From a phage, in the sequence record PV805632.1: a stretch of DNA of 64,000 nt. One strand, given 5' to 3'. Of this stretch, positions 9,359-36,965 are shown one piece after another. The notes under the pieces are model-generated. The model had not been told where the DNA came from. It was given only the letters and a program-made list of their open reading frames with translations, and searched no databases. Position 1 is the stretch's first letter. Every line of letters starts with the position of its first letter. A program made the position numbers and the translations under genes.

Positions 9359-10462
9359 ATGAAAATCGAACTGATTTCTATCATCGCACTGGCAGTTGAC
9401 AGTCGAAACCTCACACTGTGGAAGCCTGATGGCTCCACGGTTGTATACCCTCAGAGCGACCCACGGGTTGCTCGTATTGTATCTGAAGCACAGACTAAAG
9501 GTCTGGGCACTACCCAGGATCAAATAGAAGTAAACATTGCACCAGAAGTAGAACTTCGTACTGAATACCTGGAAGCAGAGAAGAACACCAACGGATTCGT
9601 TCGTTTCTTTAAGGTAGCTAAAGCTAAACTCAAAGAGTTCTTCGAAGATGGTACAGGTGTTTCACCAGCCCGTACCGTTTCAGATATTAAGCTGGGTAAT
9701 CCTACTAAGACACTAGTGTCTAAAGCTATGGATACTTTTCTGGCTGTCCAGGCTAATGAACCAGAAGTAACGGTAGCAGATGGTTACTACGACAAACGTG
9801 ACAATCTGATGTGGGTTACCGGTTGGGATAAAGACCATAACCATCTTGCACTGGTTCGTTTTATTGACTACGTACTTTGTTGGAGTCATAAGCATACTGA
9901 TCATATTCTTGCACAGGAGTGGCCTATTGCAATTCGTGCAGTATCTGATGATGAAATGGGTGAGTTTGCTAAACAAGCCCAATACATCAAAGGTGTACAC
10001 ATTGTATTTACCAACCGTGGAGAAACACCACTGCCTTACGTGGAAGTAGCTAAAACCTCGAACCAGGATAAGCTGGCTGCTGCTTCAGAGAAACTGGCTG
10101 CATTAGGTGCTATCAGTACTGATGACACTAACTTCCATACTGATGTGAAGGAAGATGAAGTGGTTGTTGCTGTTACCAACAATGGGGTTATCCCTGGGGT
10201 TGAGAACCTGCAACGCCACCTGCGTCAGTCTGCCAAGCTGAAAGACTATAAGGGCTTTACTAAGTTCCTTGAGCGTCTGGCTCCGGTTATTAAAGACCGT
10301 CTGCACTCAGTGGAAGACCTGATGAAGTTCATGGAAACTGCTGAACTGCCTATCGCTGATGATGGCTCTATCCTGTTCCTGAAACGACTTAAGTTCAGAG
10401 GTGAAGAAATGGTAAGCGTGTATTCGTTGACTGTCACTCAGGCAACATTCGTCAGTGGGTAG
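9359..10462 (+). CDS. rIIB: rIIB-like protein, N-terminal segment (possibly a frameshifted single gene with 10543..11403)
   Basis: 367-aa ORF immediately after rIIA; the next frame is open from 10405 and the two ORFs together give about 680 aa; assignment by position and size only. Confidence 0.45.
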   Translation: MKIELISIIALAVDSRNLTLWKPDGSTVVYPQSDPRVARIVSEAQTKGLGTTQDQIEVNIAPEVELRTEYLEAEKNTNGFVRFFKVAKAKLKEFFEDGTGVSPARTVSDIKLGNPTKTLVSKAMDTFLAVQANEPEVTVADGYYDKRDNLMWVTGWDKDHNHLALVRFIDYVLCWSHKHTDHILAQEWPIAIRAVSDDEMGEFAKQAQYIKGVHIVFTNRGETPLPYVEVAKTSNQDKLAAASEKLAALGAISTDDTNFHTDVKEDEVVVAVTNNGVIPGVENLQRHLRQSAKLKDYKGFTKFLERLAPVIKDRLHSVEDLMKFMETAELPIADDGSILFLKRLKFRGEEMVSVYSLTVTQATFVSG

Positions 10463-10542
10463 GTTGTAAAGTACAGGTACGAGAAGACCTGGTAGACCCT
10501 GACCGTCGTCAGGACTGCTCTAATGGTCTGCACGTAGCATCT

Positions 10543-11403
10543 ATGAGCTATATCCGTACCTTCGGTGGTAACGTAACTATCCTTGGTAAAGTAGCACCAG
10601 AAGATGTATTTGCTGTTCCTGAGTACAACACTAATAAGATGCGTGTAGCTGCGTATCACATTATTGCTGAACTACCAGAAGAGGAACGTTGCAACGTTAA
10701 CAATGGTATCTATCTGTCTAATACAGAAGTGGGTAAGAAGTTACTTAATGATGCCATCGTTGGGAACCATAGTTCACCTACCACACTTGTTATGGTTGGT
10801 GGGCATCGTGGTACTAACCTCAAATACACCAATCTATCGTCTGGTTCTGTAGAACAATTCCGTACAGTTGCTAATAAAGAGGCACTGAATATGGAAGAGT
10901 CACTGAATGAAGCTGTAGCTGCTGAACCAGTGAAGGCTACTGACCTTAAACCTATTGTTAATAAGGCTCCTACCGTGAAAGAACAAATCCAGGAACTGAT
11001 TAAAGAGTTCCTTAACGCTGCTACTCCAGAAGATAAATTAGCTGCTGCTGATTTACTTGTGGAAATGCGAGGTAAGGCTCGTAAGCCATGGGCTGCTTTA
11101 GGTGTTGGTTCCGATGTGGTATCTAAGATTGCTGATGTACGTAGTACTCGCATTCCTGCACCAAAAGCGAAACCAGTGAAGAAAACTAAGGTTCACCGTT
11201 CGGCTACTGCTACTAAGGTAGCACCGTCTGGTAAACACGCTGATAATCTGCGTAGCATCCTGAATGATACGTCCTACTCTGACTATCAGAAAGGTCATGC
11301 TCTGCAAGACTATAAGCGTCATGCTAAGAAGTCATTCACTGCAATGGGTCTGACTGAAGAAGAAGCTAAGTTAGCTACCAAGCTGGTCAAGGCCGTTAAG
11401 TAA
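10543..11403 (+). CDS. rIIB-like protein, C-terminal segment (frame open upstream to 10405, no RBS at ATG 10543)
   Basis: 286-aa ORF; its frame continues 46 codons upstream and overlaps the end of 9359..10462. Confidence 0.4.
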   Translation: MSYIRTFGGNVTILGKVAPEDVFAVPEYNTNKMRVAAYHIIAELPEEERCNVNNGIYLSNTEVGKKLLNDAIVGNHSSPTTLVMVGGHRGTNLKYTNLSSGSVEQFRTVANKEALNMEESLNEAVAAEPVKATDLKPIVNKAPTVKEQIQELIKEFLNAATPEDKLAAADLLVEMRGKARKPWAALGVGSDVVSKIADVRSTRIPAPKAKPVKKTKVHRSATATKVAPSGKHADNLRSILNDTSYSDYQKGHALQDYKRHAKKSFTAMGLTEEEAKLATKLVKAVK

Positions 11404-12272: not shown

Positions 12273-13583
12273 ATGTTTTCCAAACCTACCAAAGCCCCAT
12301 TGAACCAGGGGCAAGAAGCGGTTGCGAAGGAGTTCTTCGACTTCCTGCTCGACCCTAATGCCACAGAGTTCGGAATCAGTGGACCTGGAGGAACTGGTAA
12401 GACATTCCTGATGTCGCACCTCATTGATGACACTATGCCTGCATATATGGAAACCTGTTCTCTAATGGGAACCAAGCCTCTGTATAACGAAGTTGTCATG
12501 ACTGCGACCACGAACAAAGCTGCTGAAGTTCTGGCTCAAGCTACTGGGCGTCCAACGTCTACCTATCATTCCTTCCAGGGGCTGATTGTTAAGAATGACT
12601 TTAAAACCGGTGAGGCTACTGTCGTACCGTCTAAGTCATTCGCTATTAAGAAGAACAAAATCATCTTCGTAGACGAAGCATCCATGATTGACCGTCAATT
12701 ACTTAAGTATGCACGTGAAGGCACTCACCAGTGCAAACTGGTATTCGTAGGTGATGCTTCTCAGCTTCTGCCTGTTAAAGAGAGTAAATCTCCAGTGTAT
12801 GCTGGCAATATTCCAACACACTATCTGACTGAACAGATGCGTACCGATACACCAGAACTCAAAGCGTTGCATCAGCAATTGCGTGATACGGTGGAAGGTA
12901 AGACAGGCTTCCTGCCTATTAAATGTATTCCAGGCATTATTGACTGGGTACAGGGGGAAGAGATGGAGAAACTGGTTCTCAGTCACTTCACTCAACCCAC
13001 CAATAGCCGCATTGTTGCTTACACCAATGACCAGGTTATTAATTACAATAACTACATTCGTGAAGCTAACGGTTACGTGGGGGAATATTCCATCGGTGAG
13101 CAGCTAGTTTCTAACTCAGCCGTTCGCTTGGGCGTGGAAGACCGTCTGTCTATTGAGCAGGACGTAAAACTTATTGACCAGGATAGTAGTACTCGCATGA
13201 TTCAAGTCACGGGAGACCTGGAACTGGAAGTCCGTGATAGTACTCTAGACCTTGGTTATGGTGGTATTGTTAGTGAAGTACCAGTTCCTACCGACCCAGA
13301 CTACTTCAACCGTTTGGTTAAGTGGTTAGGTAAAGAGAAGAACTGGGAACCTTACTTCCGCCTTAAAGAAACCATTCCAGACCTGCGTGCTACTCATGCA
13401 TGTACTGTTCATAAATCACAAGGCTCTACTTACGACACAATCTTCATTGATGCAAATGACCTCTCAAGCTGTCGCCAACCTGATATGGTTGCCCGTCTGC
13501 TTTACGTCGCTGTGTCTCGTGCCCGTAAGCGAGTAGTGTTCTATGGCAATCTTGCCAGTAAGTATGGTGGTCTAACTTTCTAA
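12273..13583 (+). CDS. SF1 DNA helicase (Dda/RecD-like)
   Basis: Walker A GPGGTGKT, Walker B IIFVDEASM, C-terminal helicase-like motifs (TVHKSQGST, VAVSRAR). Confidence 0.8.
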   Translation: MFSKPTKAPLNQGQEAVAKEFFDFLLDPNATEFGISGPGGTGKTFLMSHLIDDTMPAYMETCSLMGTKPLYNEVVMTATTNKAAEVLAQATGRPTSTYHSFQGLIVKNDFKTGEATVVPSKSFAIKKNKIIFVDEASMIDRQLLKYAREGTHQCKLVFVGDASQLLPVKESKSPVYAGNIPTHYLTEQMRTDTPELKALHQQLRDTVEGKTGFLPIKCIPGIIDWVQGEEMEKLVLSHFTQPTNSRIVAYTNDQVINYNNYIREANGYVGEYSIGEQLVSNSAVRLGVEDRLSIEQDVKLIDQDSSTRMIQVTGDLELEVRDSTLDLGYGGIVSEVPVPTDPDYFNRLVKWLGKEKNWEPYFRLKETIPDLRATHACTVHKSQGSTYDTIFIDANDLSSCRQPDMVARLLYVAVSRARKRVVFYGNLASKYGGLTF

Positions 13584-13593
13584 GGGAGGGTAT

Positions 13594-14124
13594 ATGCCTC
13601 AGATTGGTTCAGCGACTATTGGTCAGGTTGCCAATAGTAGTGAGATAGTCAAACACCTGTTCTTAGCAGAGCTGGTTCGTCTTGATGGTGTGTTAAACGG
13701 CATTATTGATAAGAATGATCGTATCAATGGTGTAGATGTATCGGCTGGATTCCTTCACCAAGGGGAGTTCTATCAGCGTTCTAACGCTACCAGACCTCCA
13801 ACCTACGGTGAGCGATTAACACTTAATCCAGAACTTTGGCCTGCAATGGACAAGTATCTGAAAGCCTCCAGTCGTCTGATTATGGAAGTACACCTTGTGA
13901 ACCAGACTGTATATCGTCTGGTTCGTGGTTGTATGTCCTATCAGGATGTACGTGATGCTTTACCTGAATGTCTGGTAGCACAAGACCAAACTGGTCAGTA
14001 CAAAGGACTACCACGTACTCGTGAAGCAGCTTGGACTCTTGCTGGTGACGCTATGGCAATCAAACAGTATGAGAAGATTCTACCTTCTATTGAGTACTAT
14101 GCAGCTTCACATCTGATCTTCTAA
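13594..14124 (+). CDS. hypothetical protein
   Basis: 176-aa ORF between helicase and polymerase. Confidence 0.5.
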   Translation: MPQIGSATIGQVANSSEIVKHLFLAELVRLDGVLNGIIDKNDRINGVDVSAGFLHQGEFYQRSNATRPPTYGERLTLNPELWPAMDKYLKASSRLIMEVHLVNQTVYRLVRGCMSYQDVRDALPECLVAQDQTGQYKGLPRTREAAWTLAGDAMAIKQYEKILPSIEYYAASHLIF

Positions 14125-14133
14125 GGTAAAGCT

Positions 14134-16713
14134 ATGCGTTACATCACCTCTCAGGATACTGGCAAGTATCCTATTGCTATCCTCGGTCATCAAATCCGAA
14201 GGGAGGAGATGATTAAAACCTACCTGCTGCCTTATGACCTAAGCATGGAAGATTTCATCTTCCTTGAACTCCATTCTGCCCCCGGCAAGAAGAAAACTCC
14301 TGCAAGGGAGATTAAAGAGTTCATACAGCAGGAACTACAGCAAGTACTGGATGATGCAGAGACTCAGTACATTATCTGTACCGATTCTGACTACTTCAAA
14401 ATACTGACTAAAGAAGCTAAAGCAGAGGCTAACCTCGGCTATGTTTGTGATTCAGTATGGGGTAAGCAGAAGGTTATCTATACACCTAGCTACAGACAGG
14501 TCTTTTATGACCCACCTGTAGTGAAAGCCAAGATTGCTCAGGGAATGGATGCATTACTTAACCACATTCGCGGACAGTATGCTGAACCAGGGCAGGGAAT
14601 AATTGAGTTTGAAGCCTACCCAGATACACCCGAAAAGATTAAAGCCTGGTTGGACCAGTTGCTTGAGATGAATAAGCCTCTGGCTATAGACATCGAATCG
14701 TTCGGTTTAAAGCACTATAACGCAGGTATAGGAACGATTACGTTCTGTTGGAGTAAGACACAAGGCATAGCCTTTAATGTGGACTATGAGCCGATTAAGG
14801 GGGCTACTGAAGCTCCTTATGGGCGTATTAACAGGAACGATGTTGTTCGTAACCTGTTACGTGAGTTCTTCATTAAGTACACTCAACGGCAGATGTATCA
14901 CAACATTAGCTATGACGTGTACATACTTATCTATCAGTTATTCATGGATAACCTGATTGATACAGAAGGCTTACTACATGGCATGGAAATCATGCTGCGT
15001 AATTGGGACTGTACTAAGTTAATCACCTACCTGGCTACTAACAGTTGCGCCGGTAATCACCTTAGTCTGAAAGAACAGGCTCAGGAATATGCTGGTAACT
15101 ATGCTCAGGACGATATTAAAGACATACGTCTTATTCCTAATGAGCAACTGTTACGCTACAACCTCATTGATGGTTTATGTACGTGGTACACCTACGAGAA
15201 GCACTGGGATACTCTCATTGCTGATGACCAACTGGATGTTTACAACAACATCTTTAAACCAGCCTGTGAAGACATTATTCAGATGCAGTTAACCGGTATG
15301 CCCATGAACATGGAAACCGTTAACCAAGTGGCTGAAGAGATGGAAACTGACAGGAACCAGGCTTTGAAAACTATTCGTGAATCTAAGCTCATGAAGAATT
15401 TCACCCTGATGCTGCGTCAGGAATGGGTAGATGATAAGAATGCTAAGCTTAAGAAGAAGCAGGTAACACTGGCTGATTGTGACATTGAGTTTAATCCTAA
15501 CTCCGGTCCTCAATTACAGAAGCTGTTATTTGATTATATTGGCTTACCGGTTCTTGGTCTTACTAAGAGCAAGCAACCTGCTACTGACGGTGACACTATT
15601 AAAGCACTGCGTACACATACGCAGAGTGAAGATGTTAAGGAACTGCTCAATGCACTTATCGACTATAAACTTGTGGATAAGATTATCACTAGTTTTATAC
15701 CAGCTTTCAGGAATGCCCAACCGGGGCCGGATGGCTGGCACTATCTGTTCGGAAACCTCAATCTGGGAGGCACAGTCTCCGGCAGGTTATCGGCTTCAGA
15801 GCCAAATCTACAAACAATTCCATCCGGCTCTAAATATGCCAAGAAGATTAAGAAATGCTTCGAAGCCCCTCCTGGCTGGATATTTTGCGGTTTGGACTTC
15901 GCCTCGCTGGAAGACAGAATATCTGCATTGACTACTAAAGATCCTCAGAAACTTAAGGTGTATACCGATGGTTACGATGGTCATAGTCTTCGTGCGTATG
16001 CTTACTTTGGCGAGCAGATGCCAGATATAGTAGACACAGTTGAGTCAATCAATTCTATTCAGACGAAGTACAAGCACTTGCGCAGCGATTCTAAAGCCCC
16101 AACATTCTTGCTTACCTATGGTGGCACGTATATGGGCTTGATGAAAAACTGTGGCTTCTCAGAAGAGAAAGCTAAAACAACAGAGAAGCGTTATCACGAT
16201 CTCTATGTAGTTAGTGATGCGTGGGTTCAGGCTAAGCTAGACGAAGCTGCCAAGACTGGCTATGTTACTGCTGCATTTGGTTTGAGAGTGCGTACTCCTT
16301 TACTGGCTCAGGTATTACGTGGGACATGTAAGACTCCATATGAAGCAGAAGCTGAAGGTAGAACTGCTGGTAATGCTTTAGGGCAAAGCTGGTGTCTACT
16401 TAATAACCGTGCTGGTTCAGAGTTTATGCGTAAAGTCAGAGCCAGTGAGTTCAGGTTAGATATACGTCCTAGTATTCATATTCATGATGCTCAGTACTTC
16501 ATGATTCGTGACAACATGGATACTTTGCAGTACACGAACAAGCATTTGGTTGAGGCTGTTAACTGGCAAGACCATCCTGATATTGCTCATCCAGAAGTTG
16601 GTTTGGGTGGGGAACTATCCTTGTTCTACCCAACGTGGGCTAACGAGATTGAGATTCCAAATCACGCTACCCCGGAAGAAGTTCATCAAATAATTCAAAA
16701 GGCATTCGCATGA
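14134..16713 (+). CDS. DNA polymerase, family A, with 3'-5' exonuclease domain
   Basis: 859 aa; exo motif DIESFG, YHNISYDVY; motif-B-like KAPTFLLTYGG; motif-C-like HIHDAQYF. Confidence 0.85.
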   Translation: MRYITSQDTGKYPIAILGHQIRREEMIKTYLLPYDLSMEDFIFLELHSAPGKKKTPAREIKEFIQQELQQVLDDAETQYIICTDSDYFKILTKEAKAEANLGYVCDSVWGKQKVIYTPSYRQVFYDPPVVKAKIAQGMDALLNHIRGQYAEPGQGIIEFEAYPDTPEKIKAWLDQLLEMNKPLAIDIESFGLKHYNAGIGTITFCWSKTQGIAFNVDYEPIKGATEAPYGRINRNDVVRNLLREFFIKYTQRQMYHNISYDVYILIYQLFMDNLIDTEGLLHGMEIMLRNWDCTKLITYLATNSCAGNHLSLKEQAQEYAGNYAQDDIKDIRLIPNEQLLRYNLIDGLCTWYTYEKHWDTLIADDQLDVYNNIFKPACEDIIQMQLTGMPMNMETVNQVAEEMETDRNQALKTIRESKLMKNFTLMLRQEWVDDKNAKLKKKQVTLADCDIEFNPNSGPQLQKLLFDYIGLPVLGLTKSKQPATDGDTIKALRTHTQSEDVKELLNALIDYKLVDKIITSFIPAFRNAQPGPDGWHYLFGNLNLGGTVSGRLSASEPNLQTIPSGSKYAKKIKKCFEAPPGWIFCGLDFASLEDRISALTTKDPQKLKVYTDGYDGHSLRAYAYFGEQMPDIVDTVESINSIQTKYKHLRSDSKAPTFLLTYGGTYMGLMKNCGFSEEKAKTTEKRYHDLYVVSDAWVQAKLDEAAKTGYVTAAFGLRVRTPLLAQVLRGTCKTPYEAEAEGRTAGNALGQSWCLLNNRAGSEFMRKVRASEFRLDIRPSIHIHDAQYFMIRDNMDTLQYTNKHLVEAVNWQDHPDIAHPEVGLGGELSLFYPTWANEIEIPNHATPEEVHQIIQKAFA

Positions 16714-17015
16714 CTAAAAGTACTAAAGAAACCGTCGTCAAAAAATATCATTGGATGGTGGCAGCACAGGTAATCTTCCAGCTTCCTAAAGCCGATGATG
16801 GTTCCCTGCTTACCATGAACACAATGCTGCTCACTGACGAACCTCATGTGACTTATAAAGATTTGGCCCGTGTCAATCACTCCCTGAAAATTAGTCTGGA
16901 CCAGCGTTTCGACACCTCAGTTGACCTGAAAGATATTGTTTATCTGTCTCTTAGCAACCTGGGTCTGATGTCTGAACCAGAGTTCCAGGCAAACATGATT
17001 CCCAAGGGGGAATAA
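16710..17015 (+). CDS. hypothetical protein
   Basis: 101-aa ORF, 4-nt overlap with polymerase. Confidence 0.45.
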   Translation: MTKSTKETVVKKYHWMVAAQVIFQLPKADDGSLLTMNTMLLTDEPHVTYKDLARVNHSLKISLDQRFDTSVDLKDIVYLSLSNLGLMSEPEFQANMIPKGE

Positions 17016-17299
17016 TGACTAAGCTCTCCGGTGGTCTTAATAACTACTATGTAGTTTCAATTAAGAATCCCCAACGGAAAGAGCAAGAGCCATATCAAGC
17101 AGAGTGTGAGGATATTATCCAAGCACTGGGCATGACCTTCGATGAAGGTTGTGCCTTTAAAGCTCTATGGCGAAATGCTGCTGCCCGTATGGGTAATGGT
17201 AAACCTGGCAACTCTTCAGTGTACGACTCAGAGAAGATTGTGCATTATGCCAATCGAATATTGAAAAAGGCTTACAATGAAAGTAACCAACAATCATGA
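17015..17299 (+). CDS. hypothetical protein
   Basis: 94-aa ORF, overlaps the upstream stop. Confidence 0.45.
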   Translation: MTKLSGGLNNYYVVSIKNPQRKEQEPYQAECEDIIQALGMTFDEGCAFKALWRNAAARMGNGKPGNSSVYDSEKIVHYANRILKKAYNESNQQS

Positions 17300-18257
17300 T
17301 GTCTCACTGGCTCTGGCTGTATGGCTATTACATGATGAGTATGATTATGTAGACAATCCCAAGTACCTGTCTGCTACTACATTGCTTAAGCCCATTAAGC
17401 AAATCGTCATGAAGCATCGTGTAGATTTTAGTGACCAGTCCATTGATGTTATGGATTTTGTTTCCACATCAATGGGTACTGGCTTACATGATTCTATCGA
17501 GAAAGCCTGGAAGCTAGGCCATAAGACTGCATTGAAGAAGCTAGGTTATCCTCAGCGAGTAATTGATGCAGTAGTCATTAACCCAACCAAAGAAGACTTT
17601 GCTGCTAACCCTGACCTTATCCCAATCTACATTGAACAGCGTGGAACCAAGCAGGTTAAGGGATGGACTATTGGTGGTAAATTCGACATCGTAACAGAAG
17701 GTCTGTTGCAAGACTTCAAGTCTACCTCAACCTATTCCTGGGTTGCTGGTTCCCGTGATGATGAACACAAGATGCAAGGCAGCTTGTACCGTTGGATTCA
17801 CAACGACATCATTACTGAGGATGTCATTCGTATTAACTACATCTTCACCGACTTCATGAAACACATGGCTAACAGCAATCCGAACTATCCTGCTAATCGT
17901 ATTATGCATAAGGATATACCATTGCTATCTGTCGAGAAGACTGAGCGTTGGGTGGAAGAGAAGATTCACTTAATCGAAAAGTACTGGGATGCACCTGAAG
18001 AGGAAATCCCTGAATGTACTGACGAGGAGTTGTGGCGAACAGAGCCACAGTTCAAATACTTCTCTGATGCTTCTAAGGTAGATGTACCTGGGGCCAGAAG
18101 TACCAAAAACTTTGGCGATATGGCATCTGCCCGTATCTTCATGGCTGAAAAAGGTGGCAAGGGTGCTATCAAGGTTGTGGAGGGGCAGGTTAAACGCTGT
18201 TTATATTGCCCTGTCGCATCCATTTGCAAACAAAGAGAGAGATATTTTCCATCATGA
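17277..18257 (+). CDS. PD-(D/E)XK-family nuclease with C-terminal Cys cluster (Cas4/RecB-like exonuclease)
   Basis: GKFDIV ... LQDFKSTS (D...D/E-x-K-like) and C-terminal CLYCPVASIC (CX2CX5C). Confidence 0.5.
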   Translation: MKVTNNHDVSLALAVWLLHDEYDYVDNPKYLSATTLLKPIKQIVMKHRVDFSDQSIDVMDFVSTSMGTGLHDSIEKAWKLGHKTALKKLGYPQRVIDAVVINPTKEDFAANPDLIPIYIEQRGTKQVKGWTIGGKFDIVTEGLLQDFKSTSTYSWVAGSRDDEHKMQGSLYRWIHNDIITEDVIRINYIFTDFMKHMANSNPNYPANRIMHKDIPLLSVEKTERWVEEKIHLIEKYWDAPEEEIPECTDEELWRTEPQFKYFSDASKVDVPGARSTKNFGDMASARIFMAEKGGKGAIKVVEGQVKRCLYCPVASICKQRERYFPS

Positions 18258-20407
18258 GCATTGACCTTACCGGAGTAGTGCATCATCCAGCGATTGAAGA
18301 AATCGTAGATGTGCTCTGCAATAAAACCCAGAATAACGACCGGGGATTCTTCCGTGTCGAAGTAGCCTACTTCTTGGCTAAAATGGCATCCTGCATGGGT
18401 GCAACCATCGTAACTAAAGACCGTGGTGACCTGCCGGTAAACATCTACGCTATGGCGTTGGCTACATCTGGTTTCGGTAAAGGTCACTCGGTAAATATCA
18501 TTGAAGACGGGTTCATGACTGGCTTCCGTAAACGTTTTATGGAAGACACCATGCCCGTCATTGCAAATGACCGTTTATGGAAGATTGCTAACGAACGTGC
18601 TGCTCGTCAGGGTACGGACCAGAATGATGAGTTCGATAAAGTTGAGGCAGAGTATAAGCGTGCTGGGGCATTCCCATTCACATTCGACTCTGGTACAGCA
18701 CCTGCTGTAAAACAGCTTCGTCACAAGCTGCTTATGGCTGGTTGTGGTGCTATTAACTTACAAATTGATGAGATTGGTTCCAACCTCATTGCCAACGTTG
18801 AAGTTCTTAACCTGTTCCTTGAGTTGTATGACCAGGGGAAAGTAAAACAGAAGTTAACCAAGAACACTGCTGAAAGTATTCGTGGTGAAGAACTGGATGG
18901 TAAAACTCCTGCTAACCTGCTGCTGTTCGGTACTCCGAGTAAGCTGCTGGATGGTGGTCAGACCGAAGACCAGTTCTATGACTTCCTCGATACAGGGTAT
19001 GCACGTCGTTGTCTATTTGCCATTGGGCACTTAGATAAACGAGCACATGCAACGATGACTCCGGAAGAAATCTACCATAACCTGATTAAGCAGGATAACG
19101 TTCAGTCTCTTGGTAAGTGGGCCAACCACTTCCATAGTCTGGCTGACCCAAACCTGTTTGGCTTTAAGATGATTGTGGAAGATGCAGTGGGTATTGCTCT
19201 GATTGCTTACAAAATTGATTGTGAGAAACAAGCAGAGGCTATGGCTGACCACGAAGAAATTCGTAAGGCTGAAATCTCCCATCGTTACTTCAAGGCTCTT
19301 AAACTGGCAGGTGCATTGGCGTTTGTTGACCAGAGTTCATTCATTGAGATGTCTCACCTTAAACAAGCAATCCTGCTCGTAGAAGAATCTGGGGCAGCAT
19401 TCCAGGGTATTCTCAATCGTGAGAAAGCCTATGTGAAGCTGGCTAAGTACATTGCCTCCGTAGGTAAAGAGGTTACTCATGCTGACTTGCTGGAGTCGTT
19501 ACCATTCTATAAGAGTGGTAATGCAGCTCGTAATGAGATGATGACTCTTGCTACAGCATGGGGTTACAAACAGCACATCATTATTAAGAAGACCTTCAAT
19601 GAAGGTATTGAGTTCTTCCGTGGGGAGACTCTGAAAGAGACTGACACCAATGAGATGATAGTGGCATATAGTGATAGCTTTGCTTATGACTATGTTGGTG
19701 AACGTGTACCGTTTGACCAGCTACATGTATTAACCCAAGCTCCCGGTATGCACTGGGTAAACCATCACATGAAGAATGGGCATCGTTCTGAAGAGAACGT
19801 TATTCCAGGATTTAACATGATTGTTATTGACTGTGATGGTGGAGTACCACTGCATACGTGCCATGAACTGATGAAGGAATATAAGTTCATGACCTATACC
19901 ACTAAGCGTCATACCGATGAAGAGAACCGTTTCCGTTTGATTATTCCAATGAACTATGAGTTACACCTCGACACTGAGGAATACAAAGAGTTCATGAATA
20001 ACGTTATGGCTTGGCTACCATTCGAAACGGATGAGTCTGCTAACCAACGAGCTAAGAAGTGGATGTCCTGTGAGACTGGTTCCTATCATTACAACCTTGA
20101 TGCGAATCTGTTGGATGTACGTGACTTTATTCCTCGTACCAGTAAGAACGAGCAGTTCCAGAACCAGATGAAGGAAGTTCAGTCGTTGGATAATCTGGAG
20201 CGTTGGTTCGCTGGTCGTATTGCCTCCGGTAATCGTAATAATCAAATGATTAAATACGCACTGGCATTAGTAGACAGTGGTTGGGACTTTGCTCAGGTAC
20301 AGCAAGCCGTCTACTCATTCAATAAGAAACTGGCTAATCCATTACCAGATGATGAATTGAATTCAACCGTAATGGTCACCGTGGCTAAACGCTTCGCTGG
20401 CAAGTAA
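18254..20407 (+). CDS. putative DNA primase / replication protein
   Basis: about 717 aa from ATG 18254 (ATGA overlap with upstream stop, AGAGAGAG RBS); assigned by size and position, no motif confirmed. Confidence 0.45.
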   Translation: MSIDLTGVVHHPAIEEIVDVLCNKTQNNDRGFFRVEVAYFLAKMASCMGATIVTKDRGDLPVNIYAMALATSGFGKGHSVNIIEDGFMTGFRKRFMEDTMPVIANDRLWKIANERAARQGTDQNDEFDKVEAEYKRAGAFPFTFDSGTAPAVKQLRHKLLMAGCGAINLQIDEIGSNLIANVEVLNLFLELYDQGKVKQKLTKNTAESIRGEELDGKTPANLLLFGTPSKLLDGGQTEDQFYDFLDTGYARRCLFAIGHLDKRAHATMTPEEIYHNLIKQDNVQSLGKWANHFHSLADPNLFGFKMIVEDAVGIALIAYKIDCEKQAEAMADHEEIRKAEISHRYFKALKLAGALAFVDQSSFIEMSHLKQAILLVEESGAAFQGILNREKAYVKLAKYIASVGKEVTHADLLESLPFYKSGNAARNEMMTLATAWGYKQHIIIKKTFNEGIEFFRGETLKETDTNEMIVAYSDSFAYDYVGERVPFDQLHVLTQAPGMHWVNHHMKNGHRSEENVIPGFNMIVIDCDGGVPLHTCHELMKEYKFMTYTTKRHTDEENRFRLIIPMNYELHLDTEEYKEFMNNVMAWLPFETDESANQRAKKWMSCETGSYHYNLDANLLDVRDFIPRTSKNEQFQNQMKEVQSLDNLERWFAGRIASGNRNNQMIKYALALVDSGWDFAQVQQAVYSFNKKLANPLPDDELNSTVMVTVAKRFAGK

Positions 20408-20463
20408 GTAAACAGGAGTCTTTCTTTGGTTTGAAGGACTCCTAAACTAAACGAGGAAAAATA

Positions 20464-21216
20464 ATGTCCGAAGAAATCTCCAATGATATGAACACTCAGC
20501 TAATTCTGATTGCAGGATTCTCAGCGAGTGGTAAATCAGCATCATTGCGTAATATCCGGAACCAGGATCGCTGGTTGTATCTGAATACGGAAGCAGGTAA
20601 GCGTCTACCTTTCCGTAATAAGTTCAACACCTACAACATTGAAGACCCATATCAGATTTGGGAAGCATTTGATGTTGCATCTCCGGGTGGTGAAATGGCA
20701 GACGATGTTGATGGTATCATTATCGACTCTGCTACCTTCATGATGGACATGCTGGAATCCCAGTATGTATTGCCATCTGCTAATACCCAGAAAGCCTGGG
20801 GAGACTTTGCACAGTTCTTTAAAATACTGCTGCAACAAAAAGTCGTTAAGTTTGGTAAGCCAGTAATCATTACTGCTCATGCCAAAGATGAACTCGATGA
20901 AGCTGCTGGTGTGATGAAAACATTCATCCCAGTTAAGGGTTCACTGAAGAACAATGGCCTTGAGGCTTACTTCTCTACAGTGGTTTACGCAGAACGCGTA
21001 GACATTAAAGAGCTGGAGAAGTATGGCAACAAGATGCTTGATATTACGGAAGAAGAACGTGACTTAGGCTATAAGCACGTATTCCAGACACGTCCAACCA
21101 AGAAGTCTGTTGGTAAACGACTTCGCTCACCAATGGGTATGTTTGATAAGTCGCAGACTTATATTGATAATGATGCCCAAAAACTCTTAGACCATCTGGC
21201 TGAATACTACGCTTAA
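20464..21216 (+). CDS. P-loop NTPase (small phage ATPase, possibly recombination/replication-associated)
   Basis: Walker A GFSASGKS, Walker B-like GIIIDSAT; 250 aa. Confidence 0.5.
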   Translation: MSEEISNDMNTQLILIAGFSASGKSASLRNIRNQDRWLYLNTEAGKRLPFRNKFNTYNIEDPYQIWEAFDVASPGGEMADDVDGIIIDSATFMMDMLESQYVLPSANTQKAWGDFAQFFKILLQQKVVKFGKPVIITAHAKDELDEAAGVMKTFIPVKGSLKNNGLEAYFSTVVYAERVDIKELEKYGNKMLDITEEERDLGYKHVFQTRPTKKSVGKRLRSPMGMFDKSQTYIDNDAQKLLDHLAEYYA

Positions 21217-21256
21217 GCGTTTGCCTGGTTGTTAATCACTTATTAGGAAAAATATT

Positions 21257-22060
21257 ATGTCACTGTTCGGTAACTTGAAAGAAAAGACCAAAAACGTTGA
21301 AGCTGCAAAAGACACTCTTGGTGGTGGTGGCTTCGGTGTGAAAGAATCTGATATCTACACCGGTACTGTAAAAGTAGCTTACGTAGGTAAAGCTGATTCT
21401 GGTGCAGACTGGATGCAATTAATCATCGAAAACCTGAAAGGTTCTGACGGCAATAATGCTGGTGAGTTCCGTGCTCAGGTGTACTTTACTTCTGGTAATG
21501 CTAAAGGCAATAAGCCAACTTACGAGAAGAATGGTAAAGAATACTTCCTGCCTGGTTACACTGTCATTAATGACATGATGCTTATGGCTACTGGTTGTGA
21601 ACTGCCGGATGCAGACTTTGAAGAGAAGATTGTTAAAGTCTATGACTTCGATCTGAAAGCTGAAACCAACAAGTCTGTCATGGTTCCAGTTGACCTGGTT
21701 GGTCAGACTGTTACCTTCGCTCTGGAAAAGGTTCTGGAAGCTAAACAGGTTAAAGGTGACAACGGTTACGTTGACTCCGGTGAAACTCGTGAAGTAAACG
21801 AGATTCAGAAAGTGTTTCACCCGGAACTGCTGGTCACAGTCGTCGAGGCTCAGGAAGCAGAGAAGGCTGAGAAAGAACTGACTCCAGAACTGGCTGTATT
21901 CTATGGAGCATGGCTGGAAAAGAACAAAGGTAAAACCCGTGATAAGACCAAGGGTTCTGCTGGTGGCAATGGTAAAGGTGGATTGCCTCCTAAACCAGGT
22001 GCAGGTGCTGGCACTGGTACTACTCCAGCTGGTGGTAAATCTCTATTCGGTAAGCGTTAA
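21257..22060 (+). CDS. putative single-stranded DNA-binding protein (N4 SSB-like by position), Gly-rich C-terminus
   Basis: 267 aa; downstream of primase and ATPase; Gly/Pro-rich tail; positional call only. Confidence 0.4.
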   Translation: MSLFGNLKEKTKNVEAAKDTLGGGGFGVKESDIYTGTVKVAYVGKADSGADWMQLIIENLKGSDGNNAGEFRAQVYFTSGNAKGNKPTYEKNGKEYFLPGYTVINDMMLMATGCELPDADFEEKIVKVYDFDLKAETNKSVMVPVDLVGQTVTFALEKVLEAKQVKGDNGYVDSGETREVNEIQKVFHPELLVTVVEAQEAEKAEKELTPELAVFYGAWLEKNKGKTRDKTKGSAGGNGKGGLPPKPGAGAGTGTTPAGGKSLFGKR

Positions 22061-22615: not shown

Positions 22616-23065
22616 ATGCAAATCGTTCTGAACCAGTCTGAAGTTGAAGCTGCTATTGAAGCTTATGTAAATGAGCAAGTTAATCTTGCCGGGGACATTA
22701 ATATCCTGGTGAATGCAGATGGTACTGCCACTATCGGTATTAATGAAGAGGCCGGTCATAGTGATGACACTCCCCCCGTGGTAGAGAAGAAGACTCGTCG
22801 TTCTCGTAAGAATCCACAAGAAGCCAAACACCGTCCGGTAGAACCGGAACCGGTTGTTGAGGATGAAGCTGAAGAAGAGGTAAAGGAAGAAGAAATCCAG
22901 ACCTCTACTGGTGGTGTGAACGGGAGTTCTACGCCGGAACCTGAAGAAGTAGTAGCTGAACCAGAAGCACAAGAAGAAGTTGTGCAGGAGGAAGTTAAGG
23001 CAGAAGAACCAGCAGAGAAACCTGCTGCGAAGCCTTCACTGTTCGCTGGCCTAAAACGTAGTTAA
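22616..23065 (+). CDS. acidic hypothetical protein
   Basis: 149-aa ORF rich in E/V/P low-complexity sequence. Confidence 0.45.
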   Translation: MQIVLNQSEVEAAIEAYVNEQVNLAGDINILVNADGTATIGINEEAGHSDDTPPVVEKKTRRSRKNPQEAKHRPVEPEPVVEDEAEEEVKEEEIQTSTGGVNGSSTPEPEEVVAEPEAQEEVVQEEVKAEEPAEKPAAKPSLFAGLKRS

Positions 23066-23296
23066 TCTGGTAGGTGGCTCAGAAGCTGCTGCTAGGTGTG
23101 GTAGTGTTTATAGTCCTGATGCTACTACTGGTCAGGATTATAGACGTGTCGGCTCCATACATAGCTTTTATCATCACTGTCATTATCCTGTGGAAATGCA
23201 GTGGTAAACACGGTGGTGACAAGCCGCCAGAATAACAACAACCGAACCAGTGGATTGGAATACTCTCCCCAGTCCATTGGTTCAACCGAGGCTAAT

Positions 23297-23467
23297 ATGA
23301 ACAAATTTACTATTCACTGGCTCAATGGAATAGTTAGTTCTTTCATGGGTGGGGAACCTGTTGAAGGAAACAAAGCATTCCACATTGATTCAGAAGGCTG
23401 CAAAATCTTAGTACCATACGCTTGGTATAAGAATGGTGAAGTTGAAGCATTGAAAAAGAGCAGTTAA
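23297..23467 (+). CDS. hypothetical small protein
   Basis: ATG 23297 with GAGG 8 nt upstream; the longer track ORF from 23201 lacks an RBS. Confidence 0.4.
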   Translation: MNKFTIHWLNGIVSSFMGGEPVEGNKAFHIDSEGCKILVPYAWYKNGEVEALKKSS

Positions 23468-24525
23468 TATCGTGAAGGGTTCTGTCAGAATCCTTTGAGA
23501 TAGGAACTCCTATCATAACCTTTCTTAACTTAATCTTTGCCGTATGGCACTGACGCTAGGGGTGGCCCCCCATCCGTCAGACAGACTATTTTAAGAATAG
23601 GTTATCTCAGAAAATGTAAAGCAACATTCGGGTTAATCAATGGCCTCTTCTATAGGGGCCATTTCTGAATCTTAGGCTATATCCCAAAGGTTAGTATCTT
23701 TGGGATAAGGCTTCAGATCCCTTATCAAACTAACTGCTCAATGTTGAGTATATTAACTAACCAAGCCCAGTAAGGGGGCGGGAGTTTAATGCCGGTAAGC
23801 ATAAGCCTATCCGTCTACGACATCGAACTGTTAGATCTTACGTGCAACATAGGGTAATGGGAGGATTCGTCCCCTCCCACCTATTATGAACCAATTCGAA
23901 GTAGCACTGATTGATTAGCTGTGGAAGGTAGGCCGATGTCCACAAGCATGGCCCAGAATCAGTGCTACCCCTAATTGGAAGAATTAAGACGGGTCTGGTG
24001 AAGTAGATGGGGTTCGATTCCCTCCGGTGGAGTAATCCACTAGCGTGCTTGGTGCACGAATAAGACTTAGTACTGGTGGTTCGATTCCATCCCCCGTTAC
24101 CCGAAGTCGCCAGGTACTTATGGCAAACAACGAGGTAGTAACGAACTAGTCATTCGTCAAACGCCTCACCTAATTATGAGTCAGCAAGAACGCCTTCACC
24201 TAAACTTAAACAAAAAAGCTTAACGCAATAATTATGTAGGGGTATGTAAGGATTGCGAAGAAGGAGCCAGTTAGAGCCTGGTATGACTCACCTATTTAGC
24301 AGTAACATAGTCCTGATTGCATAGCACTCTAAAGACAACACTGGTAAGACAGTCCAGTGGCTGCTAATGTATAGTTATTCCCCTCGACGGGAATTTCGCT
24401 AGTGAAGGTAACACTTAAAAATCCAAACCTACGTCTTACTACTATCGGGCTATCAACCCACGGTCGCTTAACCCACTGGTGGTAGCAGTTTGACGGCCTG
24501 CCTCGTTGACTGCGTTAAAGTCACT
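23468..24525. other. ORF-free, highly structured non-coding region (candidate ncRNA / degenerate tRNA-like / origin region)
   Basis: no ORF of 60 aa or more on either strand; many perfect inverted repeats; two GGTTCGATTCC motifs; see findings. Confidence 0.5.
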
Positions 24526-24562
24526 AAGTCCCTCGGAGCCGTCACTCTGGGGGACTTTTTTA
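24526..24562 (+). terminator. strong rho-independent terminator
   Basis: about 12-bp stem AAGTCCCTCGGAG / CTCTGGGGGACTT followed by TTTTTT. Confidence 0.65.
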
Positions 24563-24590
24563 TTTGAGAACTACTTATGAGACGTTTTAT

Positions 24591-24743
24591 ATGATTGACC
24601 TAATCTTAACCCCGTATGCCTATGAGGTAACGGATAACCGAGGACGTAAGTCTTTGGTGTTTGCAGGTAGCGTAGCCTATAACAACGCAGTCATGTTTAA
24701 ATACAAACTTAAACCACTCTATGAGGCTAACAATGGAATTTGA
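24591..24743 (+). CDS. hypothetical small protein (50 aa)
   Basis: hand-translated ATG..TGA ORF; overlaps next small ORF (ATGGAATTTGA). Confidence 0.3.
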   Translation: MIDLILTPYAYEVTDNRGRKSLVFAGSVAYNNAVMFKYKLKPLYEANNGI

Positions 24744-24870
24744 TGATTTAGATTTTGAAGCTATTGAAAAGGCGAACCAGGAGAAGCTGGAACAGGCTAA
24801 TCGTGAAGCTGAAGAGCTAGAAAACGCTAAAGGTAACAACGATTGCACGAGTGGTGGTTGCACCATTTAA
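24733..24870 (+). CDS. hypothetical small acidic peptide with Cys-containing C-terminus (45 aa)
   Basis: hand-translated MEFDDLDFEAIEKANQEKLEQANREAEELENAKGNNDCTSGGCTI. Confidence 0.3.
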   Translation: MEFDDLDFEAIEKANQEKLEQANREAEELENAKGNNDCTSGGCTI

Positions 24871-24947
24871 CAAACAAGTGTAAGGTAGTTTTTACCGAAA
24901 GGTACTGAACTACTTACGTAGTGAGGCTGTAATAGCCAAAACAAAGA

Positions 24948-24969
24948 AAGCCCCTCATTTGAGGGGCTT
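24948..24969. terminator. bidirectional hairpin terminator between plus- and minus-strand blocks
   Basis: AAGCCCCTCA-TT-TGAGGGGCTT with T-rich flanks on both strands. Confidence 0.6.
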
Positions 24970-24975
24970 TCTTAT

Positions 24976-25578
24976 TTATACAGGATTTACTGTTTGAAAT
25001 ACCCTGACAGATACCTTAGTGAGTGTAATAGTTTGTCCACTAACGTTATGCATACCTAATTGTATGCCATTGACCATAAATGGGTCAGTGCTGCCCATGG
25101 TATATGTTGCAAGGTTTACTTCCTCGTTGCTTATATCATTACCCTGGAATTTAGAACTAAAAGCAGAACCCCTTATAGTTGTTCCATTGGGTCGTCTTGT
25201 TTGTGTTCTCCACTCTCTAACTGTCCCATCATCCCCGGCAATACTACCAGTAATCCGTACTACGAAAATTACTTGTGTATTGCCTTCTCTAGCAGGGAAG
25301 AGTAGATTGTTATCTAATATAGTAGTACCAGCAGTTCCTGCCGGATCCTTAGTTAAGCCTTCCAAACTAAAATAATTGAACCAGCTTGTATCAGTGATTG
25401 TCTGGCTTCCAGCCCAATCCCATATATCTAATAAAAAAGGATTTGGCAATTCTTTTGCCAAATCCTCGTCCGTTTTGGATGCAAGTATGCTTTTCCCCTT
25501 GTCTCCGATAAGGGTCATTCCACCCATAACCAAAGGCATTGCATCAAAACCCTGATCGTATTTGTCTTTAATGGTCAT
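24976..25578 (-). CDS. hypothetical protein
   Basis: about 200 aa from the internal Met (MTIKDKYDQ); the first Met of the track ORF lies inside the upstream terminator hairpin. Confidence 0.45.
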   Translation of the reverse strand: MTIKDKYDQGFDAMPLVMGGMTLIGDKGKSILASKTDEDLAKELPNPFLLDIWDWAGSQTITDTSWFNYFSLEGLTKDPAGTAGTTILDNNLLFPAREGNTQVIFVVRITGSIAGDDGTVREWRTQTRRPNGTTIRGSAFSSKFQGNDISNEEVNLATYTMGSTDPFMVNGIQLGMHNVSGQTITLTKVSVRVFQTVNPV

Positions 25579-25636: not shown

Positions 25637-28600
25637 TCAATTTACAAGGTTTATCCAAGGGTTCAGGTTGTGAGCACGAAGACCCTGACCAAAGCCCCAT
25701 GAGTAATCCAGACTACCCTTAGCAGCAATACTAAAGATGTTGTCCTGAATAGGTAAGCCAACATTACCAAACATGGTAGGAGTTGGAGCCAACATCGCCA
25801 TTGCTGCATGTACTGGGTTGTTACGAATCATGGACACTGCAACCTTAGCTGAACGAATCTTAAAGTTGTAGAACCACATCAAACCAACGCTTTCCATATA
25901 CCCACGGAAGCGACCAGGCAGACGGTCATAGTTAATGAACTCTTCGGTTACACGTCCCAGTGCTTCTTCACGAGTCTTACCTTTACGCTGGGTCAATTCA
26001 TCATAGATGATTGCTTTAGCGATAAAGTCAGAGTACTCAACCGTCTTCTGGATACCCTGGAACAGAGCAGTATCCTTAGTGATAAGTGCATAACGACCAG
26101 CAGCACGTACAGACTTAGGTAACTTATCCGCCAGCTTTTCCATGTATTCGTGAAGTTTACCTTCAGTAATCAGGATGTCATCACGACCAATACCAGCATC
26201 TGCAATTGAAGAGAACTCACCAGCTTCTATCAGAGGCCAGATACTCATACGCTTATGGCTATCAGTAATGGACTGAATCTCAGCCTTAAGTTTACGAATC
26301 TGGTTCGGGTTAGTAGCTGCACGTAATTCTGCTTCTGCATCTACCTGACGTAAACGAGATTTAAGGTATTGGTTAATCTCAGCAGTCTTCCGTGGAATGC
26401 TCTTAGCAATGCTCTTAACCGGTACACCACGAGCAACCATCTGGTAAAGGTTAGCCAAAAAGTTAACAACAGGTACGACTACTGACTTAACTACAATCAG
26501 AGTCTTAGCATCTTTAACTAAATTTTGAACCAGGTTCTCACCACCCATTAAGTACTTATAGGCACGGTTACCGGCTAAACCCAGAATAGCTTTTTTAAAA
26601 GTATTAAGCGTTTCCGGGGACCAACGAGAATTACCAGACCAAGCATCACCAATCGAAGCTGCACGATAGCCAAGTGCATCATTCAGCATGTCACGACGTA
26701 CCCACAGTTCACCCTCACCAAACAGTTTTTCTGCTTTCCGTCGAGTTTCACTGTTCATCAGCTTAAGAGCATCAGCAGTTACTGGGTCCAGTTTAGAACC
26801 AAAAAGGTTCACGTACTGGGACTTATTAGCAGCAGACATCTTAATGTCTTCCTTGTACATGCTATACAGGTTCTCAATCAGCATATCGTTGAAACGCTGA
26901 GCCTTAGCTTCTTCCACCTGACGACCACGCCATACACCAATTGCACGGGCAAGATGATTTTCACCTTCAATATGCTTCAGCATATTAGGGTTAATTGATT
27001 CCTCATAAGCAACCACATCACCTTTAGCATTATATACGGGCAATAGTGGTTCATTACCACGTTCACCACGAGCTAGTGCTTTAGCGATACGGTCTACAGA
27101 AGGCTTGTCAGTAATACGACCAGCTACCATGGAACCCATCGTAAAGCCTGTACCGAGGTCTACACCACCAGCAGTATTACGAACGTTCTGTAGAATACCT
27201 TGTGAGAACGGAGCCTGTGCCTGTACTGGGGCAAAGTAGTAGCTACGTGCCAGACCTCGGTTAGCAGAGCTACCTTGATAAGTACTCAGACGTACATAGG
27301 ACTTCTCTATCAAATCACCAAACTGGCTATCTTCAGCAACAACCAGACTAACACCCTGTTTAGTCTCACTAGGGATATACCCTTTGTACTGGTTCAGGGT
27401 TGCACGCATATTAGATTTGGCTTTAGCCATTTCATCTTTACGCTGCCCAACCAGGTAAGAAGTAGCAAAGTCCATTCCCTCAACTTCTGTCTGAGCCAGT
27501 GAAGATAACATCTCACGGTCGGACTTGTTCATTGCTTCCAGTGCATACAGGGTAATAAGTTTATCCAGTTGAGCTACATCTACAATAGAGCGAGTAGTCT
27601 TACGTTCACCTAACATACGAGAGATTGCAGTAGCATTCCGCAGCAAGTTTTTACCGACTGTGCCATTAATCATGTACTGAGCCAGTTGCTTAGATTTACG
27701 GTTAATCAGAGGCCAGTTACGACCAGCTTGTTTCTGCAAATCTGCTTCCAGCTTATTCACTTCACGGTCAACAATCTTCTGGTCAGATAGCAGGTCACGG
27801 ATTTCAGCCAGAGACATGGTGTCACGCAGGACAGCTAAGTCAGTTTTACCCATACCAGTGTACATTGCTTTCCACTCATCCTTAGTCAGCTTACGGCTGA
27901 ACTTAGATGCGATAGTGGTAGGCAGGTGTTCACGGAACTGCTGACGGTCAGCCTGCACCTGTGCACGAACTGCTTTAATCAAATCGTATACAGAAGCATT
28001 ACTCTTAGTACGACCGGTTAAGTCATTAACCAGGTCATGGAAAGGTTGCCATACTTTACCCTGGTTCATTGCAACCATAACGCCTTCAGCTACGTTTGCA
28101 CCATTCTTCTCTGTAGCAATAGCAGCCATTAGTTGTGCAGCATGAGCAGCACCCTTAACCAATGGATTTTTGGTATTGGCTGCAACTTCACGAGCACTTT
28201 CTAAAACACGGGTAGACAGTACATCAATAGAGTCCACCAAATACTGGTTAGCACGGTCAATAGCATTACCACTAGGAGTAGCAACGGAATCATAGAATGA
28301 CTGTGCATTAAGGCTAGTCTGCATGATTGTTTGAGCCAGTGCATCCATACCTTCCTGTACGTTGGTAGCTTTAGTGTCACCTGCTACACGAGCATTCAGG
28401 CTTGCCATTGCAGCAGTACCAATGTTAGTCAGCATTGCATCGACGGTATTCCCAGATTTCTTATCTGCTTTCATAACAGGAATGTTAGCCAGTACATTAC
28501 GTACCTCTTCACTTACCATTGCCAGACCAACAAAGGTAGGCAGTATTGAAGAACGACCCTGCGCATCAAACTCAATATTGTTAGCACCCATGATGGTATC

Positions 28601-36898: not shown

Positions 36899-36965
36899 AG
36901 CATGTTTCCTGTTCAAACTTATATCGTATATAGGTAACCTACTCTACAGTAAGCCAGTGTAAGAA

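Follow-up and report, generated by a model that had tools for sequence, protein, structure and literature searches.

Predicted Cas4/RecB-like exonuclease of the N4 gp42 type with an unusual layout of four invariant cysteines

Cas4-family enzymes are 5'→3' exonucleases that contain Fe-S clusters (PMC3466216, PMC4176176). The canonical Cas4 ligands are one N-terminal and three C-terminal Cys, which in Pcal_0546 are Cys64, Cys200, Cys203 and Cys209 (PMC4176176). In AddB and Dna2 the ligands (C519, C768, C771 and C777 in yeast Dna2) “span the nuclease site”, an arrangement known as the iron staple (PMC3439918). The first Cys of AddB, Dna2, EXO5 and AdnB is located approximately 250-320 residues upstream, so that the nuclease motifs lie within the span of the cluster (PMC3439918). 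RecB-family nucleases also carry a signature termed the QhXXY motif (PMC4176176, PMC3439918). A different set of exonucleases, which includes lambda Exo (Red alpha), RecE and LHK-Exo, has no Cys cluster; lambda Exo and RecE accompany the annealases Beta and RecT, respectively. N4-like phages encode Sak4, a RecA-core single-strand annealing protein whose cognate SSB stimulates it (PMC5928155). An “N4 gp42-like exonuclease” is listed among the conserved genes of these phages (PMC11934525), although gp42 was still entered as “unknown” in an earlier paper (PMC2784036).

The gene described here was found in a window of 64,000 nucleotides of phage DNA (sequence record PV805632.1). An earlier note, made from the sequence, had read it as a Cas4/RecB-like nuclease of the Cas4/AddB type, with PD-(D/E)XK-like motifs and a C-terminal CX2CX5C cluster, that lies in a replication module and probably acts in recombination-dependent replication or end processing. 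Classical work on N4 is said to have described a phage-coded 5'→3' exonuclease (the “exo” function) that is needed for replication.

An N4-type gene in a conserved replication operon

The open reading frame at 17277..18257 (+ strand) starts with ATG and ends with TGA, as read from the sequence, and codes for a protein of 326 aa (37.5 kDa, pI 6.2). Its start codon is right, because residues T4 and N5 are invariant in 58 close homologues, which also share the same start Met. The protein matches the PHROG 2139 profile (“exonuclease”) with E=6.3e-152, residues 1-325 being aligned to profile positions 2-324 of 330. With gp42 of coliphage N4, which carries the RefSeq label “exonuclease”, it shares 71% identity, and with the counterparts in G7C-like Gamaleyavirus phages 98-99%. 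N4 gp42 and its Schitoviridae orthologues have the same length and the same place between gp41 and the gp43 primase, and there is no difference of substance between them and the gene in the window. On sequence comparison, the gene is an orthologue of the coliphage N4 gp42 “exonuclease”. It was therefore rightly called not novel in the earlier note: it is an already known gene, annotated as “exonuclease” in N4, G7C and many other records, and represented by PHROG 2139.

The family is large. A tblastn search found matches in 472 phage records, none of them with less than 80% coverage of the protein, and the hosts of these phages include Escherichia, Klebsiella, Pseudomonas, Vibrio, Achromobacter, Erwinia and roseobacters. 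Among the clusters of protein databases, 1591 of those built at 90% identity are matched at E<=0.001, as are 2538 of those built at 50%, 356 of the latter even at E<=1e-30. When plasmids were searched with tblastn, the sole match was an N4-like phage that had been deposited as an Acinetobacter “plasmid”.

The surrounding region is typical of N4-like phages. Positions 14000-21500 of the window have a nucleotide identity of 97.5% with Escherichia phage vB_EcoP_G7C and of 95-96.6% with the other Gamaleyavirus-type N4-like phages among those listed; as judged from its nucleotide sequence, the window is the genome of an N4-like phage. A Dda-like helicase is found at 12273..13583, in a gene order matching N4 and Bas96. 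The upstream neighbour is DNA polymerase A (N4 gp39-like; 14134..16713, + strand), identified from the open reading frame list and the annotation of N4 and Bas96, and two small ORFs (16710..17015 and 17015..17299) lie between it and the exonuclease gene, which overlaps the second of these, a gp41-like ORF, by 23 nt. Downstream is the primase (N4 gp43-like; 18254..20407, + strand), which is annotated as such in N4 and Bas96 and contains a PriCT_1 domain (Pfam, E=2.6e-7). The exonuclease and primase genes share an ATGA stop/start overlap at 18254..18257 (+ strand), and the same overlap is annotated in Bas96 and N4, which suggests that translation of the two genes is coupled. The next gene, at 20464..21216 (+ strand), encodes a Sak4-like annealase (Pfam AAA_24, E=6.4e-11; annotated as Sak4-like in N4 and Bas96). 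It is followed at 21257..22060 (+ strand) by the N4-type single-stranded DNA-binding protein (gp45-like), which returned no match in a Pfam scan and was assigned by synteny with the annotated SSB of N4 and Bas96.

The operon order of polymerase, two small ORFs, exonuclease, primase, Sak4-like annealase and SSB is common to the window, N4 and Bas96. Roseophage R7L has the same order, but without the two small ORFs upstream of the exonuclease. Insertions of homing endonucleases or introns are seen in neighbouring genes of some close relatives and are absent from the window. The position of the gene between DNA polymerase A and primase agrees with the replication module proposed in the earlier note, and the gene belongs to the core set of N4-like phages from many host genera, where it is located inside a replication operon.

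Fold and catalytic motifs

From sequence alone, the family assignment of the protein is weak. Pfam PDDEXK_1 (PF12705) gives 17.4 bits, below the gathering cut-off of 22, and is matched at E<0.1 by only 32 of the 58 family members, the best at 9.3e-5; by these scores the gp42 family sits at the edge of the model. No match to the protein was returned by a scan of NCBIfam profiles, and nothing relevant was found among all PDB sequences, whether these were searched by phmmer with the protein or with a profile of the 58-sequence family. Since the matches at the level of sequence are weak, the question of the fold was settled by structure comparison.

An AlphaFold2 model built from the 58-sequence alignment has a mean pLDDT of 90.6 and a pTM of 0.80, with no segment below 50. 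Its best structural match is Cas4 SSO0001 (PDB 4ic1; Foldseek E=4e-7), followed by RecE, a phage-related exonuclease and EXO5, and the top six structural neighbours include Cas4 SSO0001, EXO5, Cas4-Cas1, Dna2, MGME1 and LHK-Exo. The modelled core has the alpha/beta fold of restriction endonucleases, and comparison of the model thus confirms a PD-(D/E)XK fold of the Cas4/RecB type. This is the class that had been named in the earlier note, where the fold was expected to emerge from a profile search; it emerged from AlphaFold2 and Foldseek instead, the Pfam score being sub-threshold and the PDB profile search empty. Among predicted viral structures, the only close match is an N4-like representative from Delftia phage RG-2014 (TM 0.91). 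Other viral Cas4-like predicted structures reach a TM of only about 0.4, because the gp42 family has approximately 120 residues more than Cas4.

Conservation was followed in three sets of sequences: the 58 close homologues, 144 mutually distant representatives that are 36-52% identical to the query, and 45 distant relatives (approximately 23% identity) that were reached through Leptospira phage LE4. Residues H71, D137, D146, K148, Q167 and Y171 do not vary in any of the three sets, that is, in about 250 homologues. Motif I (G67-TGL-H71-DSI-E75; 17475..17501, + strand) includes the candidate metal-ligand His, and neither G67 nor H71 varies among the representatives (144/144) or the distant relatives (45/45). 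The strand that precedes motif II carries an acidic/basic pair, E120-Q-R122 (17634..17642, + strand), for which a role may be presumed from its conservation: E120 is invariant in the close homologues, in 144/144 representatives and in 44 of the 45 distant relatives, and R122 is found in 143/144. Motif II (G-G-K-F-D137; 17673..17687, + strand) ends in the predicted catalytic Asp, which is invariant and pairs with the Asp of the Cas4 “GKIDLV” motif in hhalign. Motif III (D146-F-K148; 17712..17720, + strand) is the (D/E)XK motif, and its D146 and K148 pair with the “E/D-x-K” of Cas4. Motif IV (Q167-GSL-Y171; 17775..17789, + strand) corresponds to the QhXXY signature of RecB-family nucleases; its Q167 and Y171 are invariant, and the Q is paired with the Cas4 Q. 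Motifs II, III and IV of the PD-(D/E)XK/RecB class are thus present together with a candidate metal ligand in motif I, which bears out the PD-(D/E)XK-like motifs of the earlier note, and we infer that the gene encodes a metal-dependent PD-(D/E)XK nuclease, its activity being predicted from these motifs and from the model.

For comparison with Cas4, four solved Cas4 sequences were taken from the PDB. These had been fetched with an artificial, hand-written Cas4-like consensus as query, and only the returned PDB sequences were used, not the consensus. Alignment of the family to the four sequences by hhalign had a weak probability of 10-19%. It pairs D137, K148, Q167 and the CX2CX5C trio with their Cas4 counterparts, and it is only the pairings of motifs II-IV and of the Cys trio that are trustworthy. 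The profile comparison proposed in the earlier note therefore supports the likeness to Cas4 at these positions, but at a low overall probability. In an extended alignment of low confidence, G67 and H71 are placed opposite a conserved G-x-x-x-H of the solved Cas4 sequences.

The protein is nevertheless not a Cas4 in the strict sense (DUF83/PF01930), since neither the profile, nor cas1/cas2-CRISPR linkage among the neighbours, nor the Cys layout of Cas4 was found. It is only 14-20% identical to Cas4 SSO0001 (PDB 4ic1) and Pcal_0546 (PDB 4r5q), with no significant match at the level of sequence, and its gene has polymerase, primase, annealase and SSB genes as neighbours in place of a cas/CRISPR context. 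These points bear on the idea of a counter-defence Cas4 that alters spacer acquisition by the host CRISPR system or otherwise affects host immunity. A Cas4-like protein of Campylobacter phages, for which such a role was proposed, offers a precedent (PMC5704561, PMC4283603), and the idea would fit both the rank of Cas4 as best structural match and a weaker match of the protein to PHROG 1706 (“CRISPR/Cas system associated”, Cas4-like; E=1e-11). However, there is no match to Pfam Cas_Cas4 (PF01930) even at E up to 10 and none in a PADLOC scan, and this core N4-like gene is found across many host genera always within the replication operon. The gene consistently lies near genes for annealases, SSB and a resolvase (see below), not near genes related to defence, and we consider a counter-defence function to be very improbable.

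Four cysteines bracketing a basic C-terminal stretch

There are only four Cys in the whole protein, at positions 247, 308, 311 and 317. The last three form the trio C308-x2-C311-x5-C317 (C308LYC311PVASIC317; 18198..18227, + strand), which is invariant and pairs with the CX2CX5C of solved Cas4, and the C-terminal CX2CX5C reported in the earlier note is thereby upheld. The note had also raised the matter of a fourth ligand. This is provided by C247 (P245-E-C247; 18015..18017, + strand), which lies after the catalytic core, in a non-canonical position, and is present in 58/58, 144/144 and 45/45 sequences within the conserved context P-E-C-T-x-E-E-L-W. All four Cys columns are invariant in the three sets, save for one or two C-terminally truncated sequences among the 144 representatives, and this conservation is far beyond chance. 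In the LE4-like branch the spacing of the trio is CX3CX5C or CX4CX5C, and each of the 45 distant relatives has 50-65 aa between the first Cys and the trio. It is very likely that the four Cys form a metal site.

The location of the site is unusual. All four Cys are C-terminal to Y171, within 71 residues downstream of the motifs, and on the N-terminal side of the motifs no conserved Cys is seen in any family member among the 144 and 45 sequences. In the low-confidence part of the hhalign alignment the canonical “yCPR” Cys of Cas4 is placed opposite K38/P39, where no member has a Cys and where the LE4-like branch has D, N, S, G, A or P; an alternative pairing, also of low confidence, sets C247 against the leading Cys of the canonical trio. 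The protein therefore differs from Cas4 in that it lacks the N-terminal “yCPR” Cys and has its fourth Cys after motif IV. It also differs from AddB, Dna2, EXO5 and AdnB in being a stand-alone protein without a helicase domain, and from lambda Exo, RecE and LHK-Exo, to which it has no detectable sequence similarity, in having four invariant Cys. Four conserved Cys including CX2CX5C are shared with the iron-staple nucleases, but in the gp42 family these do not span the nuclease motifs. Of the “Cas4/AddB type” assigned in the earlier note, the fold, the motifs and the trio can thus be retained, but not a set of Cys spanning the active site. When the alignments are compared, the layout of the gp42 family differs from that of all characterised iron-staple nucleases.

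Along the chain, the four Cys bracket a basic stretch of approximately 55 aa, and not the active site. Residues 254-306 (18036..18194, + strand) have a beta-beta-alpha-beta secondary structure in the AlphaFold2 model and a pI of 9.8, compared with 6.2 for the whole protein, and in view of the model they are a possible DNA-binding or arch element. A home-made mean-field DCA of contacts between the C247 region and the trio region (262 sequences, Meff 188) gave a noisy output dominated by aromatic residues and was set aside.

By analogy with Cas4, the four invariant Cys probably hold an Fe-S cluster. Because the first Cys is placed unlike that of the canonical Fe-S nucleases, the analogy with their cluster is less direct, and because C247 is not N-terminal, a “staple” across the active site, of the kind seen in Cas4, AddB and Dna2, would not be formed by the cluster. 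The nuclease and its role could be the same and the Cys bind structural zinc, or form no cluster. All four Cys are found in the C-terminal 80 residues around a small sub-domain, which is more reminiscent of a zinc module than of an iron staple, and the family is not uniform in the distance between the first and second Cys of the trio (CX2C, CX3C, CX4C). Against this, the CX2CX5C trio pairs with the Fe-S ligands of solved Cas4, and four of the top six structural neighbours (SSO0001, EXO5, Cas4-Cas1 and Dna2, but not MGME1 and LHK-Exo) are Fe-S binders (PMC4176176, PMC3439918). A zinc site, or no cluster at all, therefore seems unlikely, and an Fe-S cluster remains our preferred reading of the four Cys.

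A more speculative view, which we advance tentatively and with some doubt, is that the gp42 family is a distinct Cas4-like branch with a relocated metal cluster. The N-terminal ligand would have been lost, and C247 together with the old CX2-4CX5C trio would close the basic sub-domain of approximately 55 residues. This could be a clamp that binds DNA ends or partner proteins, and it might allow one family of nucleases to serve Sak4, RecT and Sak/Rad52-like annealases.

Annealase neighbours and predicted role

In the window, the Sak4-like gene is located two genes and the SSB gene three genes downstream of the exonuclease. Annealase genes also accompany distant members of the family. Leptospira phage LE4, which is not N4-like, encodes a homologue annotated as “similar to some gp42-like proteins”, and a RecT-like annealase lies two genes upstream of it. 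An environmental sample of 44 viral contigs with LE4-like homologues was examined by clustering the neighbouring genes and scanning them with Pfam and PHROGs. The commonest neighbour, found on 30 of the 44 contigs (at +1 to +3 in 29, at -1 in one), is a protein of approximately 240 aa that belongs to the Sak family of single-strand annealing proteins (PF06378, E=1.3e-47; PHROG 659). A RusA-like resolvase is encoded upstream of the LE4-like homologue in 18 of these environmental loci, and primase-helicase and SSB genes are found near LE4-like homologues in other environmental contigs. In a tblastn search of 46 LE4-like loci with the Sak4, SSB and primase of the window and the RecT of LE4, nothing was found beyond LE4 itself, and a relative of polymerase A was present in only 1/46.

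Three unrelated types of annealase (Sak4-like, RecT and Sak/Rad52-like) thus accompany the family, with the exonuclease gene near that of a single-strand annealing protein. This pairing with three annealase families supports a role as the exonuclease half of two-component recombination systems, and the recombination role suggested in the earlier note is strengthened by it. The likeness to lambda Exo/Beta and RecE/RecT is that of an exonuclease accompanying an annealase, and such exonucleases are also among the structural neighbours of the model. Lambda Exo-type systems differ in one respect: in N4-like phages the primase gene separates the annealase from the exonuclease, so that the two are not direct neighbours. 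By analogy, the evidence supports an end-resection exonuclease for recombination-dependent replication.

The position of the gene in the N4-like operon, right after the polymerase and with primase before annealase, would fit a role at the replication fork equally well. A Dna2-like nuclease that removes 5' flaps or primers during Okazaki-fragment maturation, and does not resect ends, would also be consistent with the ATGA overlap and the coupling to primase that it suggests, with the presence of Dna2 among the structural neighbours, and with the N4-type polymerase being devoid of a 5'→3' exonuclease domain (PMC2784036). Distant members, however, travel with RecT, Sak and RusA-like resolvase, and not with polymerases, as shown by the single locus with polymerase A. 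Moreover, N4 replication reportedly depends on the 5'→3' exonuclease of host Pol I, which would already cover primer removal. We therefore regard the fork nuclease as a minor alternative of low probability.

Some phages degrade host DNA with PD-(D/E)XK or other nucleases, and a predicted exonuclease that is grouped with replication genes might similarly supply nucleotides for phage DNA synthesis. We found no context in favour of this, the annealases that accompany the family in three lineages point to recombination, and N4 is said not to degrade host DNA. Such a function is extremely improbable.

The reading that we favour, and hold to be fairly probable as a whole, is that of a Cas4/RecB-like exonuclease of the N4 gp42 type, with an Fe-S cluster, that resects 5' ends for recombination-dependent replication by Sak4 and SSB. 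The enzyme would load on double-stranded DNA ends, such as those of the terminally repeated genome or of broken forks, and degrade the 5' strand. The resulting 3' single-stranded tail would be coated by the phage SSB, and the Sak4-like protein might then anneal or pair it with homologous sequence, thus priming recombination-dependent replication and giving rise to concatemers. The four Cys would hold an Fe-S cluster that serves in structure or in the binding of DNA. This cluster would close the basic loop or sub-domain of approximately 55 residues at the C-terminus, and would not bridge the sides of the active site.

As a discovery this adds little, the gene being a core, already annotated gene of N4-like phages for which the earlier reading was right. 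No dedicated exonuclease partner for Sak4-type systems was found in the literature searched; gp42-like proteins are likely to be the exonuclease half of these systems, and the pairing of gp42 with Sak4 could aid the development of recombineering tools from N4-like phages. The only non-trivial addition is the invariant four-Cys layout, which is unlike that of any characterised iron-staple nuclease and extends across a family of 472 phage records and more than 2500 clusters at 50% identity. It makes the Fe-S prediction of the earlier note slightly more informative than one would have expected, since the N4 gp42 family could reveal if a RecB-type nuclease can make use of an Fe-S cluster that does not span the active site.

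Replication module of the window and its relatives

The replication module of the window (14000..21500), which encodes DNA polymerase A, the N4 gp42-type exonuclease, the primase, and a Sak4-like annealase, was compared with those of the N4-like phages G7C, Bas96, PhAPEC5/7, and SP5M. In these close relatives the equivalent module carries homing-endonuclease or intron insertions. For example, the Sak4-like gene of Bas96 is joined from two pieces with an endonuclease gene between them, the DNA polymerase genes of PhAPEC5/7 and SP5M are split, and the module of G7C is ~770 bp longer than that of the window, the extra DNA including an HNH gene. By contrast, none of the insertions seen in these relatives is present in the module of the window, where both the polymerase and the Sak4-like genes are intact. 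An antisense ORF of 173 aa (17966..18487, - strand) spans the exonuclease/primase junction; it is absent from the annotations of the relatives N4 and Bas96, and is most likely spurious.

Organization of the flanking regions

The homologue of rIIB (9359..11403) is present as two ORFs (9359..10462 and 10543..11403), with the break near 10406-10462. Alignment with the intact rIIB of Bas96 (93% nucleotide identity) reveals a 1-nt deletion within an A-run at ~10406, which shifts the reading frame and leads to a stop at 10460-10462. The split could be a sequencing error in the homopolymer, or rIIB could be a real pseudogene.

GC skew changes sign at ~24 kb, the same point at which gene orientation flips from the + to the - strand. 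Early and middle genes lie on the + strand before ~24 kb, while the late genes after the flip are on the - strand, as is the gene for the giant virion RNA polymerase (25637..36916). Between the replication module and the latter gene is a stretch of small ORFs (23065..24976); the syntenic stretch of Bas96 has an annotated 85-nt tRNA-Val, whereas ARAGORN predicts no tRNA in the entire window.

Exonuclease homologues in other genomes

A tblastn search against plasmids identified a homologue of gp42, full-length and with 43% identity (E=2e-75), in NZ_CP110465.1, an Acinetobacter baumannii record deposited as a plasmid. The size of this record (75126 bp), together with the gp42 homologue, suggests that it is an N4-like phage genome and not a plasmid.

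Amongst the 44 environmental contigs (loci L005-L048) encoding distant exonuclease homologues related to that of Leptospira phage LE4, 23 contain an ORF of ~98 aa (e.g., L016:3834-4130) that lies 2-4 ORFs downstream of the exonuclease, generally directly beyond the Sak annealase gene. The one representative product examined has no match in Pfam or PHROG and ends in an acidic tail, EEDLPF, that resembles the C-terminal tip of SSB proteins; the ~98-aa ORF may encode a minimal SSB-like or partner-binding protein.
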